DNA from: a virus
Lineage: Duplodnaviria > Heunggongvirae > Uroviricota > Caudoviricetes
Reading direction: 5' to 3' (one strand)
IMG/VR virus record: IMGVR_UViG_2529292882_000018
Span: 1 to 34,246 of that record
Length of the DNA stretch: 34,246 nt
Position 1 is the stretch's first letter. The number at the start of each line of letters is the position of its first letter. Of the stretch, positions 10,277 through 19,844 are shown in pieces. The notes under the pieces were generated by a model that made no database searches, was not told where the DNA came from, and saw nothing but the letters and a program-made list of their open reading frames with translations. The translations under genes and the position numbers were made by a program.

Positions 10277-12277
10277 ATGCTTAAATTTCGCCGCGATCTT
10301 AACGGTTACGGTGGAGTTATTAACGAAGGGCATAACGATCAATACGAGTTTGAAATTGCTTTCTCCAGTGAACAGCCTTATCAGCGCCAATTCTGGGATG
10401 AGCAAAATCAAGAAATGGTGGTATTAGATGAAATTCTGGTACATACACCGGAAGCGGTTGATCTGTCTCGTCTGAATAATAACGCTCCGTTGCTGTTCAA
10501 TCATAATTTCGATAATCACATTGGTGTTGTTTGTAACGCTCGAATCGATGCGGATAACGTAGGTCGTGCTCTGGTTAAATTCTCTAAGCATGGGACTATG
10601 GCTAACGATATTCGTAATAAAGTCATTGAAGGTACGATGGAAAAAATTTCTGTCGGCTATGACATTAAAGAATATCACATCGATTATGCCAAAGGGCAAT
10701 TGATTGTTACTAAGTGGGCACCCTATGAACTCTCATTTGTCACCGTTCCTGCTGACGATACGGTTGGTTTAAATCGCTCTCTAAATACTATCACAGTTAA
10801 TTTGGAGGCTAAACGCGATATGACTAAAGAACAAATCGAAGAAATCAAAGAAGAACAAGAAGCCGCTCAGGTTGAAGAAACTCCGGTAGAAGAAAATAAA
10901 GAATCGGAAGTTGAAGAAACTCAAGAGCGCCAAGTTGAAGAGAATAAAGAAGATGAAAATCTCGAAGACGGAAAAGACGCTGAACATCCTGAAAGTGTTG
11001 ATGATGATAGTTCAACTGTTCGGGAAACAGAAGAAGTAAAAGAAGAACGTGAAGCCGCTCCGGTTGAAGAAGAAAAAACCGAAGAAGTGGCTGAACGTTC
11101 CGAAGAAGACGAAGAAGAAATTCGCGAAATTGCACGCGAACTAAATATTGATGACTCTGAATTAGCACGCGCATTGGCAATTAAAGACATGACGCCGGAA
11201 GCATTCCGCACTAAGGCACTAAATAATCTCGTCAATGCTCAACGTAATAACGAACAAATTAAGGACTCTAAAATGGAAAAAACTTTTGACCTGAACAACG
11301 TAATTCGCTCTCTGGTAGATGGTGCTGCTCTGGGTGCTAACGAAGCTGAATATTCCGCTATGGCTGCTGGTGCTGCAATGCAGCGTGGTCGTGCTGCTCG
11401 CGGTGGCTCTGTATTCGTTCCGGCTGCTGCTATGCGTGCTGCTTCTGCTGGTAACACCAAAGCCGACCTGACCGCTATCACTGACGAAAAACTGATGACT
11501 GAATCCTACATCGAAATGCTGATGCCGGAATCTGTTCTGGGTCGTCTGGGTGTGACTGTTTACAGTGGCTTGAACTCACCGACCGCTATTCCAAAAATGA
11601 CTAAATCCAGCGTTGACGCTTTCGGCTTCGTTGATGAAAACGGTGCTGCACCGGAAAGCAAAGCTGAATTTGCAAACGTGAAACTGTCTCCTAAGACTTT
11701 TGCTGGTGGCAACCCGATCAGCCGTCAGTCGCTGAAAACCGTTCCGGGCATCGCTACCCTGATCACTGATCACATTAACAAAGCTGTTCGCATCAAACTG
11801 GAACAACTGATTCTGTCTGATAAAGCTAACGACCGTGGTCCGGCTGGTCTGGTTAAGCAACTGGTAGACGCTAGCCGCGTTACCAAGAAAGCTGCTTTCT
11901 CTTATAAAGACTTCCTGAAAGAAATTGCAGCACTGACCGACGCTGGCGTTCCTGCTCAGGCGATCAAGTTTGCAATGAGCGGTGCAACTGCTGCTGAACT
12001 GGAATCTACCCTGAAAGATAACGGCGTTTCCGGTTATATCATCGAAAACGGCAAACTGGCTGGTTACGAAGTAGTTACTTCTGGCGTTATCCCGGCAGAC
12101 CACATCGTTCTGGGTGACTTCTCCGGTATTACTATCGGTGAGTGGGGAGGTCTGGAACTCGACATGGATCTAACTACATATAGGGATCGTGGTGCGGTAG
12201 TGCCTCGTATCTTTGTAGATTTGGACTACGTTGTAGCACAGCCGGAAGCTCTGAAAGTTCTTCACATCTCCGAATGA
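10277..12277 (+). CDS. prohead protease - acidic scaffold-like linker - major capsid protein fusion
   Basis: 666 aa; N-terminus has ELSFVTVPADD motif typical of HK97-type prohead proteases; middle is Glu-rich with repeated EAA(Q/P)VEE units; C-terminal ~330 aa is capsid-like with highly biased codons. Confidence 0.75.
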   Translation: MLKFRRDLNGYGGVINEGHNDQYEFEIAFSSEQPYQRQFWDEQNQEMVVLDEILVHTPEAVDLSRLNNNAPLLFNHNFDNHIGVVCNARIDADNVGRALVKFSKHGTMANDIRNKVIEGTMEKISVGYDIKEYHIDYAKGQLIVTKWAPYELSFVTVPADDTVGLNRSLNTITVNLEAKRDMTKEQIEEIKEEQEAAQVEETPVEENKESEVEETQERQVEENKEDENLEDGKDAEHPESVDDDSSTVRETEEVKEEREAAPVEEEKTEEVAERSEEDEEEIREIARELNIDDSELARALAIKDMTPEAFRTKALNNLVNAQRNNEQIKDSKMEKTFDLNNVIRSLVDGAALGANEAEYSAMAAGAAMQRGRAARGGSVFVPAAAMRAASAGNTKADLTAITDEKLMTESYIEMLMPESVLGRLGVTVYSGLNSPTAIPKMTKSSVDAFGFVDENGAAPESKAEFANVKLSPKTFAGGNPISRQSLKTVPGIATLITDHINKAVRIKLEQLILSDKANDRGPAGLVKQLVDASRVTKKAAFSYKDFLKEIAALTDAGVPAQAIKFAMSGATAAELESTLKDNGVSGYIIENGKLAGYEVVTSGVIPADHIVLGDFSGITIGEWGGLELDMDLTTYRDRGAVVPRIFVDLDYVVAQPEALKVLHISE

Positions 12278-12420
12278 ACTAGCGTAGAACCTTCTGAACC
12301 TTCCCCCGATTTGGGGGAAGAAAATCTGATTCCATCTCAGGAAGAAGAATCCCAGACGGTTACGGCGAAAGCCACAGCTAAAAAGGTGGGACGTCCACCG
12401 AAAGCAAAATAATAATAATT

Positions 12421-12448
12421 AGCCCTGCCTAACGGTGGGGCTTTTTTG
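12421..12448 (+). terminator. intrinsic terminator after capsid region
   Basis: AGCCCTGCC-TAAC-GGTGGGGCT hairpin followed by TTTTTT. Confidence 0.7.
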
Positions 12449-12477
12449 TATGTAAATACTCCATAAAGGGGGTAACT

Positions 12478-12768
12478 ATGTTCAAATTATCAGAATCACA
12501 ATTATCAAGAATGTTCCGAAGTGCTCCTGTATTTTCGGTGGAAGGTGGTAAATCAATTCGTGCTTATCATGAAATTACTACTACCGACGAACAAGGGGTA
12601 ATGACAGAGACAGAATTTCTATTTTGTCGTGAGGGAGACTTAAAGCAAGGTGATATTGTCATTGTAGAAAATCAGCGTTTCAAAGTTCAATACGTTAAGC
12701 GCAATGGTGACAATACCGCAGATTGCTTTATCACTCTGGCAGGGGGTACACATGCTCGCTACCGTTAA
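12478..12768 (+). CDS. hypothetical head-tail connector candidate
   Basis: 96-aa ORF with AAGGGGGTAA RBS immediately after capsid gene. Confidence 0.55.
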   Translation: MFKLSESQLSRMFRSAPVFSVEGGKSIRAYHEITTTDEQGVMTETEFLFCREGDLKQGDIVIVENQRFKVQYVKRNGDNTADCFITLAGGTHARYR

Positions 12769-13183: not shown

Positions 13184-14017
13184 ATGAATATTACACAAGA
13201 TAACTTAGACATTTTCACGGGGTCGCATGTTGAAGTTTCCGTGTCTACTATGGTGGATAACCAGCCGGACTTTTTCGATCCTGCATTTAGTCCTATCGAG
13301 AACATCGCAGCATTCCCGACGATAACCGAATCTACAGAGATCCAGACGTTAGAAGAGTATGATCAGGACGCTACGGGGAAACTTGCTGGTTATCGTAAAC
13401 TTGAATCAACTACGTTAGTAGTAAACCGTGTTCTGGATGACGAACATCAAGACATGTTGATGAAAGCGGTAGAGGATAAAACACCTTTACGCTTCCGAAT
13501 GTTCTATGTTGTGAACTCTGGCTATAGTGCTGCTAACACTGGTTACTATGTCATCTATGATGCTTACGTCACATCACATAAAACCCGTGGTAGCGATAAC
13601 AAAGCGGTAACACTGGAATTTAAACTTGAACCAGATGGCGGGATTCTTGCAAGGGGTATCGCGACCGAAGGCCGGATCTTACGTCAAGGTGATTTTGGTT
13701 TGGGTGCTGGTGTACATCCATTCACAGGTCCGATTGATAGCGAAGCATTAGCCGGAAACCGTTTCGTAACTTATCAGGGATCGAGCGCATCTAATCCATT
13801 TAGTGCTGATACTTCACTAATTCACGTTCAACCTAATGAAGATGGTGGATGGCAATTAACTTGCACCGCTTCCGGCGCACCACGTTTACGAGTTCGCACA
13901 GTCCAGAAAGACGGTAATTCGGGATGGGTGAAAGTGTATTCCACAGAAGAAAAACCGACACCAGCCGAGATTGAAGCCGTTTCTATCCATGACCGGATCG
14001 ATTTCGGTGAGTTCTAG
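13184..14017 (+). CDS. putative virion structural protein
   Basis: 277-aa ORF with strong RBS; C-terminal EEKPTPAEIEAVS motif is shared with the side fibre (KPTPAEIGAYS). Confidence 0.55.
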   Translation: MNITQDNLDIFTGSHVEVSVSTMVDNQPDFFDPAFSPIENIAAFPTITESTEIQTLEEYDQDATGKLAGYRKLESTTLVVNRVLDDEHQDMLMKAVEDKTPLRFRMFYVVNSGYSAANTGYYVIYDAYVTSHKTRGSDNKAVTLEFKLEPDGGILARGIATEGRILRQGDFGLGAGVHPFTGPIDSEALAGNRFVTYQGSSASNPFSADTSLIHVQPNEDGGWQLTCTASGAPRLRVRTVQKDGNSGWVKVYSTEEKPTPAEIEAVSIHDRIDFGEF

Positions 14018-14092: not shown

Positions 14093-17000
14093 ATGCAATC
14101 AATCCAATTTAAACGAACTAATGTTTCTGGCAAAAAGCCAACGCCGGAACAATTACAGGTCGGTGAGGTGGCAATCAACCTTAAAGACCATGTTATTTTT
14201 ACCAAAGACCGAGATCATGAAGTAGTTCAAATCTCTGTTTCTCCTGAAACTCACGCGGCACTAGAATCTAAAGTTGATGCTAACAAACAAGAATTGGATA
14301 GCACAATTGCAGTAAATGACCGCAATATTCACGCTAAAGTAGATGAAATTAAACAAACTACTGATTCTACTATCGCAGCAAATCATGCAGAAATTAACAA
14401 TAAAGTTGATGTAATTAAACGCGAAACCGACGCGACAATCGAAGCTAATAAAAATAAAGCTGCTTCCGATCTTGCTGGTGTTAAAGCTGAATTGTCGGAT
14501 ACCATCAACGCTAATAAAAATGCGGCTGCTGTAGCAACTCAGGAACTGGACACCCGCATCAATAAAAAAGTTGATGATATTAAATCCCGTACAGATGCAA
14601 CCATCGCAAGCAATGACAAAGCAATCAATGACAAAGTTGATTTGATTAAGACAGAAACTGACCGCACTATCGCAGCAAATAAAGTCTATGCGGAAAATCA
14701 GTTAACTGACACCTACAATAACCTTACTGGTGTGATTGCAGCTAATAAGCAAGAGGCAGCGGATAACGTTGCGGCATTAACCCGTGATGTTGAAGCCAAA
14801 AATACAGCAATTCATAGCAAAGTTGACAATAACAAGTCTTACACTGATTCTGAACTGGCACGTTTAGAAAGCCGTATTGATGCAGCCGATGGATCTGCTG
14901 ATGGCAAGTACATCAAAAAACACGTAAACACTTATACTGATGGTTATTTGCTGTCTAAGACCGCAAACTATTTTGATGATCCAAATGCGCGTAATCTTGA
15001 TTACTTTGGTGCATTCCGCATGAATGACCTGGCGGGTCATATTGCAATGATCTTGCATGTTCCGCATCCATCTGGTGTTAATCATGCTCGTGGCTTTGAG
15101 TTCACTTATGGGTCTAATCCACATGCTACTGTAAGAACATACGGCTATGATGAATTAGGTAATTTGTCATATTCTCACCGCATGTATCATGAAGGTGATA
15201 AACCTACTCCGGCTGAAATTGGCGCATATTCGAAAGCAGAAATTGACCGGATGTTCCAGAAGACCATCAACTTTGGTGTAGAAACTGGATGGTTTAAAAT
15301 TGCTACCGCCTTTATTCCGCAAAATGACGGACGTAGCTTGAAAATTAGATTGATTGGTGGAAATGGGTGGAACGTAGGACAAACTGGACAATGTAATATT
15401 ATTGAACTTGTTATAAGGACTAGCAACGGTTCGCCTAAAGGAATTAACTTTGTTGCGTATCATCATGTTTCTGGTTACGAAAATCAATTTTGTGCCATTA
15501 ATACAGGTGATGACACTTATGATATCTATGCATATTACTTCGAATTTACTAATATGGTAATGGCTGAATATCAAGCGTCCAGCGATGTTAATTTAACTGT
15601 ACTTGATCGACCTGAATATGTAGGCGATAAACCTGTAGCTGACCATATCTATGATGCATATACAATACACTCCTTTAACAGTTTCAGTAACCGTGGAACG
15701 TTAAATTTTGCTGGAAACCATCAAGGCCAATATGACATTGAGCATATGAACGAACAACCGACAAATGCTAAAAAGATGTTGCGTCGGTTTAGAAGCTCTG
15801 CCCTCGCGACAATCTGGCATGAAACCGTTGATGATAACGCATATCGTCTTGCCACTGGCGGTACAGATTCAGGTCAACAATTATTGCTGACAACAACCGG
15901 GTTACATGTCAAGAGATTAACATTGGATGGCGGTGCTGCGGGTGGAAATGCTGGTATTGATATTCGTCGAGGACCAAACGAAGCAAGCCATTTTAATTTT
16001 ATGGATTATCGCACTGGTCAAGATGTTCGTAATGGCTGGTTTGGTTTTGGTGATTTGACGACCAAAGATTTTATTTGGTGTAACGATAACGGTCAAAACT
16101 CGATAAACTTGATTGAAAACGGTGAATTACATATTACTGGTGGTAAAGGCCAGAAAATTGTAATGAATAGCGAAGTCGCATTGTCTGAAAATGCTCGTTT
16201 GGCTGTTAAAGGTGGTAATTATGGCTTAATTTTTAGAAATGATGGTACTAGTTTCCATATACTGACTACCGATTTAAAAGATTCTTTTGGAAATTGGAAT
16301 AATCGTAGACCATTCAGCTATGATTTCGCCGAAGGTGGATTAGATCTAGGTGGCACAACGACCGAACGCTGTTTACATCTGGGAATTGATGGTAGTACCC
16401 GCATCGAGGAGAACTTAGTTTTCCGATCTGGGTCGCGTCAATCAATGGACTATATTGAAATGATCCATTGGGGTAACAGTAATATCGCTCGTGACAACGT
16501 TTTGAGTATGAAAGACTCAAAAGGATTCCTTGCTGAATTTGAACGAGTGGGTGGGACTAACGGCGTTAAAACCAGATTCTTTGGTGAAACATTCACTGAT
16601 GGTACATTATACCTAAATCAGATGAATAATAGCTCTGAACGATTCTCTATCAACAATTGGGGAAATTCAGAAGTTGGACGCGCGGCAGTAATGGAAATCG
16701 GCGATTCCAAAGGTTATCACTTCTATACGGAACGTAGAACAGATAACAGTTTGATGTTTGATGTTGCTGGCGCTTTTACTGTGCATGGACCTAGCGGGAT
16801 CACTATCAAAAACTCTGATGGTGCTCGTCACATCTGGTTTAGAGATAACAGCGATACAGAAAAGGCTGTTATCTGGGCTACAGATGAGGGTATTTTACAT
16901 ATTCGCAATAACCACGGTGGACAATTTAGTCATCACTTCCAGGGTGCAATGATTAAAGCGGGAGAGCGTGTTCCATATAATAGTGAATACGCTCTTATCC

Positions 17001-17602: not shown

Positions 17603-17641
17603 TTGGAAAGCGGGGCGAAAATCCCCGCTAAGGATTCTTAT

Positions 17642-17938
17642 ATGGGATATTGGGTAAGTAGTGAAATTAATACTAAAATCGATGCTTTAAAATGGCATGT
17701 ATTTGATATTCCTAACGGCTATGGTACTGCTCGTGCTGGTGTCGCTGTAATGCGTCATAATGCTGGTGGTGGGTGGTCTGATGCACATATTAACGTAGAT
17801 GGTTTGACCGTTGCTCGTCGTCGTGGTGGGACCAATTGGGGATCTACTATAAATTCGTTTGTTCCTGCTGGCTGCACCGTCTCCTTTGGTTTAGGGGGTG
17901 AAGGTGGTGTTGAATATTTTAAATTCATGGAGTTTTAA
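17642..17938 (+). CDS. small Gly-rich protein, paralog 1 of 3
   Basis: Track ORF starts at TTG 17603 inside a hairpin; ATG 17642 with AAGGA RBS gives MGYWV...FDIPNGYG. Confidence 0.55.
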   Translation: MGYWVSSEINTKIDALKWHVFDIPNGYGTARAGVAVMRHNAGGGWSDAHINVDGLTVARRRGGTNWGSTINSFVPAGCTVSFGLGGEGGVEYFKFMEF

Positions 17939-17940
17939 TT

Positions 17941-18246
17941 ATGGCTGGATGGATAAATCAAAGAATGTCAAACGCTATTAGTATTTGGGCTAATGGTGGA
18001 TATTTTGATATCCCCAACGGTTGGGTCACTGATTCATGCGGAATTGTCTTTGCTCATATGGAAGCCATTAACGGTGCTGGTGATCTTGATTCTGAATTGG
18101 CTGTAAATGGATTGATTGAATCAGGTCATCATGCTGGTGATGCTGGGAGTTGGGGCGCTAGTTCTTTAGTTGGCGCTGGTGCTACCGTTAGCTTTACATT
18201 GGGTAAAGGTAGTTTGCATTATTTCAAATTCAGGAGAATGCACTAA
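17941..18246 (+). CDS. small Gly-rich protein, paralog 2 of 3
   Basis: 101 aa, MAGWI...FDIPNGWV; DNA-level similarity to neighbours around the GATATTCCTAACGG block. Confidence 0.55.
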   Translation: MAGWINQRMSNAISIWANGGYFDIPNGWVTDSCGIVFAHMEAINGAGDLDSELAVNGLIESGHHAGDAGSWGASSLVGAGATVSFTLGKGSLHYFKFRRMH

Positions 18247-18548
18247 TGGCATTTTGGGTAGATGGCGCTTTGGGGAATAGGGCGGGTAAAGCAAATCAAG
18301 GATGGTTTGATATTCCTAACGGGTGGACAGCCGACGCTTTCGGGACTATTTCATTTTCCGCTCATTCTTCCGGTGGTGGCGGTGGTGACTCTGAATTGCT
18401 TATTCATGGTTTGTGTGTTTCTGGAAGTCATAAGGGTCATGATTGGGGACAGATTCATTCTTGTATTGCACCGCAAGGGGCGGTAATTACCGTTAGCACG
18501 AATAGAGGGATTGCTCATCTTCGTTATAGACGCTTGAGCAACCGCTAA
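18246..18548 (+). CDS. small Gly-rich protein, paralog 3 of 3
   Basis: 100 aa, MAFWV...FDIPNGWT; start overlaps previous stop (TAATG); AGGAG RBS. Confidence 0.55.
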   Translation: MAFWVDGALGNRAGKANQGWFDIPNGWTADAFGTISFSAHSSGGGGGDSELLIHGLCVSGSHKGHDWGQIHSCIAPQGAVITVSTNRGIAHLRYRRLSNR

Positions 18549-18602: not shown

Positions 18603-19073
18603 ATGACTACTAAATTTGATATTTTCTCTGGTGGCCTCGTTGGTCTGTTTCTGCAAGAAGACGTAAACAATAAAGACCTTGATGCTGAAACCTATCTGGA
18701 AATTCCAGAATGTGCGGCTTTCCCGGAAACTGGTGTAGAACGTTCTACGATCGATGTTCCAAACTTCTCTGGTGCTTATAACCGCAAGCTGGTTGGCCGT
18801 ATGTCTGTACCGGATATCGAACTTTCGATCAACTACATGCCGGGTAACGAAGTACACGAAAAACTGATTAAAGCAACCGAAGACGGTAAGCGCGTACAGC
18901 TTAAAATTGCTTACTACATCGATGCTACGAAAAAATCTGGTGTACATATCGCTTATAACGGCTTCCTGTCTAAAACTACCATGACTGGTGGTGAGGATGC
19001 TGTAGTAGGCCGTACCTTCACCTTTGTAGTAGATGGTGCTCCGGTTAAACAAGCTGTTTTCCAGACTCTCTAA
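18603..19073 (+). CDS. major tail tube protein, lambda gpV-like N-domain
   Basis: 156 aa; INYMPGNEVHEKLIKATEDGKRVQLKIAYY resembles the lambda gpV block LAWMPGEQ...EGDTRAYKIRF as recalled; canonical position before the G/T chaperone genes. Confidence 0.7.
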   Translation: MTTKFDIFSGGLVGLFLQEDVNNKDLDAETYLEIPECAAFPETGVERSTIDVPNFSGAYNRKLVGRMSVPDIELSINYMPGNEVHEKLIKATEDGKRVQLKIAYYIDATKKSGVHIAYNGFLSKTTMTGGEDAVVGRTFTFVVDGAPVKQAVFQTL

Positions 19074-19155: not shown

Positions 19156-19464
19156 ATGAATATTAACGAAATGTTAGCCGCACTCTCTCCGAAACGCGAA
19201 TCTTTGACCATCGGTGGATTCACTTTCTATGCTCGCCCTATGTCAGTAAAAGAATTTAACGAACATGTTTTCAATACTGATAAAGAAGACCGTGATGAAC
19301 GCTCTATTCTTCGTTGTATTGAAGATGAAGACGGTAAGCCAGTATTTGAATCTATGGAACAAGTTAAGGCACTGTATACTAACGTTCGAAGTGAATTAAT
19401 CGGTTTGGTTGCTCAAGCATCATTGATGCAAGATCCGGCAGTAATTGAAAACGAGGTAAAGTAA
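19156..19464 (+). CDS. tail assembly chaperone (G-like)
   Basis: 102-aa ORF with AAGAGGA RBS, between tail tube and tape measure. Confidence 0.6.
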   Translation: MNINEMLAALSPKRESLTIGGFTFYARPMSVKEFNEHVFNTDKEDRDERSILRCIEDEDGKPVFESMEQVKALYTNVRSELIGLVAQASLMQDPAVIENEVK

Positions 19465-19493: not shown

Positions 19494-19844
19494 ATGATGA
19501 GATCGGGGCTTAGTAAAGATGAAATGGATAATATGCCAATCACTCTGTTTTGGAAATTATACATTTTCGACACCTACTTAGAACCACAAAGCCCCGCGTT
19601 TCATGATATGCAGAATGCGATGTTGCAATATTCCATGTATATGACTTCGCAAGGAATGACACGCGAAACTGCACGTAAACTCAAGCCTAACCAATTCCAA
19701 TTAATTAGAGAAGAAAAACTCTTTAAAACTAAAGAAGAACTGGAAGAACTTGCACGCAAGAAAGAAGAAGAACGTAAAGCTGCAACATTGAGCATGTTCG
19801 ATCCATCTTTGCTTGAGAAACTCAGAAGCGCACAAACGGGGTAA
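19494..19844 (+). CDS. tail assembly chaperone T-like segment, probably made as a G-T fusion
   Basis: 116-aa ORF lacking a convincing RBS; its frame is open from 19449 and is the -1 frame relative to the upstream ORF. Confidence 0.45.
   Translation: MMRSGLSKDEMDNMPITLFWKLYIFDTYLEPQSPAFHDMQNAMLQYSMYMTSQGMTRETARKLKPNQFQLIREEKLFKTKEELEELARKKEEERKAATLSMFDPSLLEKLRSAQTG

Follow-up and report, generated by a model that had tools for sequence, protein, structure and literature searches.

Does the major capsid gene of an Escherichia coli prophage specify one protein or two? The question is raised by the IMG/VR record IMGVR_UViG_2529292882_000018 (Caudoviricetes), of which we analysed the whole stretch of 34,246 nucleotides, hereafter the window. 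This AT-rich (41.6% GC) siphovirus-type prophage carries a capsid gene (10277..12277, + strand) that ends in a TGA codon, behind which the same reading frame runs on without a stop almost to a transcription terminator. An earlier reading of the letters without database searches (the sequence-only reading) had proposed that this UGA is leaky, and that low-level readthrough yields a C-terminally extended capsid variant. Comparison with relatives supports the proposal: the frame past the TGA is kept open, the capsid TGA is the only one in the window, and the same 3′ cassette, with a covarying RNA helix at a fixed distance from the stop, is found behind a second capsid gene of 39% identity and behind the tail-tube gene. 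We put the probability that programmed UGA readthrough equips a minority of the capsid and tube subunits with an acidic/proline linker and a basic tail at roughly 0.7.

The capsid gene encodes a 666-aa fusion of a prohead protease, an acidic scaffold and an HK97-fold major capsid protein, as judged from the list of open reading frames (ORFs) and from Pfam. Peptidase S78 (PF04586) covers residues 40–162 (E = 2.2e-10) and the phage capsid family (PF05065) residues 409–663 (E = 2.6e-26), so that both domains of an HK97-type capsid gene with a fused prohead protease lie in one ORF; the capsid domain also matches the capsid of phage R4C (PDB 8GTA, E = 1.5e-24). Within this ORF (10277–12274) composition and codon usage shift sharply, from 40.6% GC in the protease and scaffold part to 49.8% GC in the capsid domain, the codons of which are of the E. 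coli high-expression type (gct, ctg, cgt, ggt).

The candidate leaky stop, UGA followed by ACU, occupies positions 12275..12277 (+). The in-frame extension behind it (12278..12409, +; TSVEPSEPSPDLGEENLIPSQEEESQTVTAKATAKKVGRPPKAK) is 44 codons long, not 45 as first counted, and consists of an acidic, proline-rich linker (eight acidic residues, no basic ones) followed by a basic tail (no acidic residues, six basic ones). It is closed by three tandem TAA codons (12410..12418, +), in place of which relatives have TAA TAA or TGA TAA. Two nucleotides past the last stop comes an intrinsic terminator with a 9-bp stem and a T-run (12421..12448, +; stem 12421–12442), which is kept in relatives. As stated in the sequence-only reading, the extension contains no in-frame ATG; the in-frame start candidates that it does contain are a TTG at 12311 and a GTG at 12386. 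Pfam and PHROG searches assigned the extensions (28–45 aa, rich in Pro, Glu, Lys and Ala) to no family, and they have no folded Ig-like or FN3 domain. The VGRPPKAK tail variant alone scores against the AT-hook (PF02178), at 13.2–14.2 bits and thus below the cutoff of 17.4, and the tail variants QRKTKE, ERKTKAK and RSRKAKD gave no match to the same family.

In a single genome, an open run of this kind is not significant on its own. Across the 33 genes of the window the frame stays open past the stop for a median of 8 codons; it does so for at least 44 codons in six genes, five of which owe this to the frame of the next gene, and the initial estimate that such a run would arise by chance in about one case in ten was fair. 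The significance comes from the comparison with relatives, and it begins with the stop codon itself. Within the window 31 genes end in TAA (about 94%), one in TAG and one, the capsid gene, in TGA; in relatives, the genes that end in TGA are the capsid and the tail genes. We also considered another TGA, which ends the 277-aa gene of relative L073, and set it aside as an ordinary stop, the next one following three codons on.

Relatives were gathered from IMG/VR, complete E. coli genomes and metagenomes (about 60 distinct ones), and the capsid-cassette set comprises 32 distinct sequences drawn from IMG/VR and from E. coli genomes, together with 13 contigs of metagenomes. In all distinct capsid-cassette sequences the TGA is followed by A, frame 0 is open, and a closing TAA or TGA-TAA lies near the terminator; most have UGA-ACU as the stop context, and the others UGA-AAU. 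The conservation of the open frame in related phages, named in the sequence-only reading as a check, therefore came out in its favour, with in-frame indels in every relative. Frame 0 is free of stops in 37 of 37 distinct extension DNAs, and frames +1 and +2 contain stops in all 37. The extension lengths fall into nine classes between 84 and 135 nt, each a multiple of three; a 27-nt deletion in L043, L093 and L137 is in frame as well, and leaves intact the 8-bp hairpin described below. The extensions are mosaics of a short or a long linker and one of the tail variants VGRPPKAK, QRKTKE, ERKTKAK or RGRKPKE, and the acidic-then-basic composition is held across these unrelated sequence variants. 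Substitutions in the extensions number at least 59 and at least 36, to which many indels are added, with no stop and no frameshift among them. Furthermore, the same TGA-plus-extension cassette stands in frame behind a second capsid lineage, the capsid domain of which is 39.1% identical in amino acid sequence to that of the first. To judge from these alignments, what is conserved is the openness of the frame, the charge composition and the RNA structure.

We saw no allele in which a sense codon replaces the TGA: a profile of the tail peptides run against 5.8 billion protein clusters recovered one 33-aa ORF call only (P0121), and none of 120 capsid homologues among the matches listed extends past the stop. 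In one relative, L042 (E. coli ETEC1703, NZ_CP122923), a run of six A is shortened to five about 12 nt before the capsid stop, and the shifted frame passes the TGA and ends in KKLTELL-TAG; either a sequencing error in the homopolymer or inactivation of this prophage copy would account for it.

The cassette is not a property of capsid genes alone. In many relatives a 19-nt core of the extension is found twice per genome, about 5.85 kb apart, and the second copy lies 3′ of the gene for the major tail (tube) protein. There the gene ends in ...TAG-TGA-ACT, and an in-frame run-on, TNEELP...VTAKATAKRSRKAKD, leads to a terminator homologous to that of the capsid gene. The pattern GTTAMGGYGAAAGCCMCAG recovers capsid and tail cassettes alike, and core and terminator are near-identical in DNA between the two copies. 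The choice of stop codon goes with the cassette: all 19 distinct tail alleles that carry it end in TGA, and the two that lack it, those of the window and of L052, end in TAA. In the window the tail gene (18603..19073, +; PHROG 158, E = 6e-20) has its TAA directly before the terminator. The cassette is thus found in frame behind three genes, namely those of the two capsid lineages and that of the major tail protein, and the extension lies at the C-terminus of a major capsid protein (PF05065) and of a major tail protein (PHROG 158).

At the RNA level the cassette is strongly structured. The predicted folding energy of 12275–12420 is −45.6 kcal/mol, as compared to −29.8 ± 3.6 kcal/mol for shuffled sequences (z = −4.4), and the z-score ranges from −2.5 to −5.5 across cassette types. 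The predicted structure opens with an unpaired 10-nt spacer between the UGA and a helix that we call P1 (12278..12287, +); the spacer is seen in both the minimum free energy and the centroid folds of five out of six variants and in the consensus for the L090-type tail cassette, and no relative has an indel in it. P1, supported by the folds and by the mini-alignment described below, pairs a 5′ arm at 12288..12296 (+; AACC-U-UCUG) with a 3′ arm at 12353..12361 (+; CAGA-C-GGUU), the latter lying directly before the conserved core ACGGCGAAAGCC. The helix begins at nucleotide +11 after the UGA in five of the six folded cassette variants and, for the sixth, in the tail-cassette alignment consensus. 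Its 5′ arm occurs as AACC.UCUG, AAUUGCCGGAA, AACUUC or AACAAC; its 3′ arm ends in GUU, followed by the shared core A[CA]GG[CU]GAAAGCC with a GNRA hairpin.

We evaluated P1 in a spliced mini-alignment of 24 distinct rows, anchored on the UGA and the core. In this alignment 90.9% of the cells pair in register versus 22–49% with the partner slid, five of the eight pairs have changed on both sides, and none of 500 shuffles matches the observed values, figures that are to be read with the caveat that the anchors were picked after the folds were known and that the independent events are few, perhaps four to six. In the short cassette of L031, a compensatory change in P1 from U-A to C-G changes the encoded residues.

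The sequence-only reading had pointed to a different structure, an 8-bp GC-rich hairpin 22 nt after the stop. The hairpin is indeed there, at 12300..12320 (+) within the P1 domain (CTTCCCCC-GATTT-GGGGGAAG in DNA; in RNA CUUCCCCC and GGGGGAAG around the loop GAUUU), and its stem is invariant in all long capsid cassettes, the loop showing a single U>C change (L041, L130); it is not, however, the conserved element, since it is absent from the short capsid cassettes and from the tail cassettes. Missing from two of three cassette types, and with an 80-nt fold that is ordinary (z = −0.72), it was rejected as the key element. The large indels also fall inside the P1 domain. Past P1, the common core contains a small hairpin with a GNRA loop, GGC-GAAA-GCC (12364..12373, +), present in five of six folded variants and in the tail consensus; all of its cells pair, with one change from G-C to G-U. 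A further hairpin, GGUGG-GACGU-CCACC (12385..12399, +), appears in the fold of the VGRPP-coding tail variant and is missing from the other tail variants; in L006 and L008 it reads GGCGG...CCGCC, a double change that preserves the pair.

Taken together, positions 12275–12448 can be read as a portable 3′ cassette made up of a UGA, a 10-nt spacer, a structured RNA domain, a coding tail, TAA stops and a terminator. In the proposed mechanism, a small fraction of ribosomes would pass the capsid UGA, most likely by inserting tryptophan through the near-cognate tRNA-Trp in competition with release factor 2 (RF2). A minority of the major capsid subunits would thereby gain about 45 residues at the C-terminus, first a flexible acidic/proline linker and then a basic tail, and with Trp at the UGA the junction peptide would read VLHISE-W-TSVEPSEPSPDLGEENLIPSQEEESQTVTAK. 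In relatives, the cassette would act likewise on the major tail-tube protein. Starting at +11, P1 would lie at about the mRNA entry point of a ribosome with the UGA in its A site, and may stimulate the readthrough. Phage T7 display uses the C-terminus as a site for external tags. For the tails considered here a location on the outside of head and tail is likewise probable, because C-terminal additions to tube proteins protrude outward (PMC8718954) and the C-termini of HK97-fold proteins serve for external tags, as in encapsulin tagging (PMC8229669). As to function, our guess is that the tails are weak electrostatic tethers; speculatively, a few such charged tethers per virion might bind weakly to anionic surface polymers.

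Several observations weigh against this interpretation. While UGA readthrough amounts to 2–4% in E. coli K-12, where Trp-tRNA competes with RF2 (PMC10570021), UGAA is terminated efficiently by the wild-type-like RF2(B), with which no NudL or PheL product of readthrough was detected (PMC5373646). The passive rate in natural hosts may lie far under 1%, and because UGAA terminates efficiently with RF2(B), either the extended subunits would be very few or P1 would have to stimulate. By our estimate, a few extended subunits per head of about 400 would still be possible. Apart from the selenocysteine insertion sequence (SECIS), we know of no established bacterial precedent for readthrough stimulated by RNA structure. 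Selection on the peptide is also less than striking. In frame 0 the ratio of non-synonymous to synonymous polymorphism (pN/pS) comes to 0.66 in the capsid tail and 0.42 in the tube tail, indicative of weak amino-acid constraint; the two other frames give values that are higher by only a small margin; third codon positions hold no excess of the variable sites; and the avoidance of stops by substitutions alone reaches P ≈ 0.07 and P ≈ 0.2. The relatives form one closely related prophage family, and the counts given above are not independent. The conservation at the nucleotide level could largely be explained by selection on the RNA structure. Finally, the cassette is dispensable at least on the tail, because the window's own tail gene does without it.

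Part of this evidence would suit an untranslated structured element of the 3′ untranslated region that moves between gene ends and serves mRNA stability, aids the terminator or gives rise to a 3′-derived small RNA, with the open frame being incidental. The predicted structure is strong, conserved and covarying, its compensatory changes override amino-acid identity, core and terminator are near-identical in DNA between capsid and tail, and the amino-acid constraint is weak, all of which such an element would lead one to expect. We nevertheless consider it unlikely: it does not explain why frame 0 is open when the other frames are stopped in every sequence, why the lengths are multiples of three, why the cassette joins three different upstream genes in frame every time, or why TGA is constant amid about 94% TAA and gives way to TAA in alleles without the cassette. 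Nor does it account for an acidic-then-basic composition kept across unrelated variants, and no Rfam family matches the element. A decaying relic, in which an ancestral constitutive tail was cut off by a nonsense mutation and the remnant has not yet degraded, would be in keeping with the youth and close relatedness of the family and with sister-clade capsids that end in short fused K/A-rich tails (e.g. ...GTPAEAKAAKQ). It is improbable in view of the substitutions (at least 59 and at least 36) and numerous indels, which brought neither a stop nor a frameshift, of the presence of the cassette also behind a 39%-identical capsid gene and a tail gene, and of features that one would not expect of a relic, such as TGA specificity and a covarying helix at a fixed distance.

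The extension might instead be a separate small gene initiated at the internal TTG or GTG; a 33-aa ORF from the TTG (12311..12412) stands in the mechanical ORF list, and the database entry P0121, of the same length, reflects the same choice by a gene caller. The TTG, however, lies in the loop of the 8-bp hairpin, beside its 3′ arm and without a Shine-Dalgarno sequence; L041 and L130 have TCG in its stead, the short variants L009 and L031 have TTA and TCG, respectively, and no start stands at the corresponding position of the tail cassettes. Moreover, the frame is conserved from the first codon past the TGA, upstream of any candidate start. Independent initiation is very unlikely because L041 lacks any in-frame ATG, GTG or TTG and L009 has lost the TTG. 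We find it similarly hard to credit that the UGA encodes selenocysteine by way of a SECIS-like hairpin. The selenocysteine machinery is present in E. coli and the structured element begins 11 nt past the UGA, which is also the distance reported in E. coli for the minimal SECIS, an agreement in spacing only and not in identity. Against this, an Rfam 15 search of 12150–12500 at E ≤ 10 returned terminator-driven noise only, with neither SECIS nor any other family, and in the element P1 closes off a large, variable domain, the apical loops of which (GAUUU, GAAA) differ between cassettes and presumably lack the loop/bulge signature bound by SelB; a redox residue between a capsid and a disordered tail would also have no obvious rationale. 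Stop-codon recoding is known in some gut phages, and a reassigned code or a suppressor tRNA would turn the TGA into a sense codon; for this E. coli phage we regard that as scarcely credible, there being no tRNA gene in the window, 33 of 33 genes intact under code 11, and a single TGA placed exactly at the domain boundary.

Programmed readthrough, the reading that we prefer, has its closest parallel in the A1 protein of phage Qbeta. Functional stop-codon readthrough is textbook knowledge for Qbeta and, to our knowledge, otherwise very rare in bacteria and their viruses. The two systems share the host, a major coat gene that ends in a (here putatively) leaky UGA, and an in-frame extension that opens with a proline-rich segment; at the Qbeta coat stop Trp is inserted about once in 15 times (PMC8067240). 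The Qbeta-group record NC_001890, which annotates a readthrough of about 5%, has UGA-ACU as its coat stop hexanucleotide, the very context of the capsid stop here. Two hallmarks of programmed readthrough, a weak UGA in a leaky 3′ context and a same-frame ORF that is kept open, are accordingly present in the cassette. While the minority extended coat protein of Qbeta is known to enter the capsid, readthrough in the present case is predicted from sequence. The differences are considerable: Qbeta is a 4.2-kb single-stranded RNA levivirus with another coat fold and a folded extension of about 196 aa, whereas the cassette family belongs to double-stranded DNA (dsDNA) tailed prophages with an HK97-fold capsid and a low-complexity tail of 28–45 aa, also serves the tail-tube gene, and has a covarying helix 11 nt downstream of the stop.

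C-terminal extension of capsid or tail proteins by recoding has been described for T3 and T7, Lactobacillus phage A2 and Listeria phages PSA, A118 and A500 (PMC5009743), and SPP1 makes an extended tail protein, gp17.1*, at a 3:1 ratio (PMC8718954). The Listeria phages resemble the relatives of the window in that the capsid (Cps) and tail (Tsh) genes of one phage are both affected. T7 10A/10B, T3, A2, PSA/A118/A500 and SPP1 employ +1 or −1 frameshifting, however, and mostly add a folded Ig-like or FN3 domain; in the window clade the extension lies in frame 0 behind a stop, with no frameshift arrangement, and adds a short charged tail. The finding is thus a variant of both Qbeta-type readthrough and the long forms of virion proteins that are made by recoding.

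A sister clade, the capsids of which are 37–43% identical to that of the window, shows two other arrangements. In L101–L104, L108 and L109, short K/A-rich tails are fused to the capsid in frame. In L099, L100, L105, L107 and DCP80, the capsid gene ends in TAA and an ORF in the −1 frame, encoding a linker and a basic tail, leads to the terminator; it is preceded by an A-run, which is A AAA AAG in L105 (the classical heptamer), A AAA AAA in L100, A AAA C in L099, A AAA A in L107 and A AAG A in DCP80. On these few sequences, the −1 ORF may serve the same end by way of −1 frameshifting. The sister-clade arrangements, few as the sequences are, fit the idea that one mode of recoding can stand in for another (PMC5009743). 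We tentatively entertain, at somewhat less than even odds, a wider description that covers all of the above: a portable, RNA-structure-assisted UGA readthrough cassette of dsDNA tailed E. coli phages that puts a small number of charged, flexible tails on both head and tube, and the counterparts of which in the sister clade would work by −1 frameshift on an A-run or by constitutive fusion. DCP80 itself (L045; Escherichia phage DCP80, PQ671644) is a 141-kb record classed as T4-like Straboviridae that contains a lambda-like terminase, portal and protease-capsid module, and may be a chimeric assembly.

Readthrough stimulated by 3′ RNA structure is described for eukaryotic viruses (PMC3159437; PMC5009743), with a pseudoknot in murine leukaemia virus and extended stem-loops in alphaviruses and coltiviruses. 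The layout is alike: a UGA (or UAG), a spacer of about 8–10 nt, and a stable, conserved RNA structure. Ribosomes and release factors are eukaryotic in those systems, and a stimulatory role of P1 in the cassette is conjectural. Bacterial SECIS elements are similar in having an in-frame UGA and a structure from about 11 nt downstream, but are defined hairpins, whereas the cassette is a multi-helix domain with variable loops and without a SECIS match in Rfam.

If the wider description of a structure-assisted cassette holds, it would be the first case of a structural protein extended by readthrough in tailed phages, and a bacterial counterpart to the structure-stimulated readthrough of eukaryotic viruses; in the literature searched, the coverage of which is incomplete, no case of a tailed phage with readthrough in its capsid or tail genes came up. 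The cassette would then provide a tractable natural system in E. coli, of all organisms the one with the best-understood termination, in which to ask whether mRNA structure tips the competition between RF2 and tRNA-Trp, and would show by what means phages fix the stoichiometry at which minor forms of their major virion proteins are made. A natural low-copy display site on capsid and tail would also be of potential use in phage engineering. PGAP and Prodigal-type gene callers miss such products, and the cassette is unannotated in the five E. coli genome regions inspected, in which PGAP has no annotation at the position of the extension.

The host is E. coli, as indicated by the close capsid homologues, all of which carry the names of E. 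coli, Shigella or E. albertii, and the region is present in 54 out of 5,426 complete E. coli genomes (about 1%). A comparison of the region with 50,697 phage records by megablast gave no match, and tblastn against phage records found distant capsid proteins only, the best being that of DCP80 at 40%, with no close isolated phage. Among species-representative genomes, a scan with the protein pattern came back empty, and a scan with the DNA pattern yielded chance matches in unrelated taxa only.

Besides the 666-aa protease-scaffold-capsid fusion, the window encodes a lambda-like terminase and portal, head-tail connector proteins, a long tail fibre, the major tail protein, tail chaperones and a tape measure. 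Three small tandem paralogous genes with a DIPNGW motif (17603–18548; 111, 101 and 100 aa) separate the tail fibre gene from that of the major tail protein. These paralogues are missing in relatives such as L071 and L090, in which the cassette-bearing tail gene adjoins the fibre gene. The gene at 13184–14017 (277 aa), upstream of the tail fibre, has the only TAG stop of the window; the N-terminal half of its product matches PHROG 158 (E = 3e-9), and by this match the protein would be a second tube-like paralogue. Downstream of the major tail gene, 19156–19464 and 19494–19844 form a pair of tail assembly chaperone genes, the first of which belongs to PHROG 344; the second ORF is in the −1 frame and is open back across GUA AAG UAA (19456–19464), the layout expected of a G/GT-type frameshift, in which an A_AAG slip site directly adjoins the stop. 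Lastly, the tail-fibre gene contains, at 14270–14680, five copies of a periodic repeat of 66 nt (22 aa; KVD..IK...D.TI.AN).

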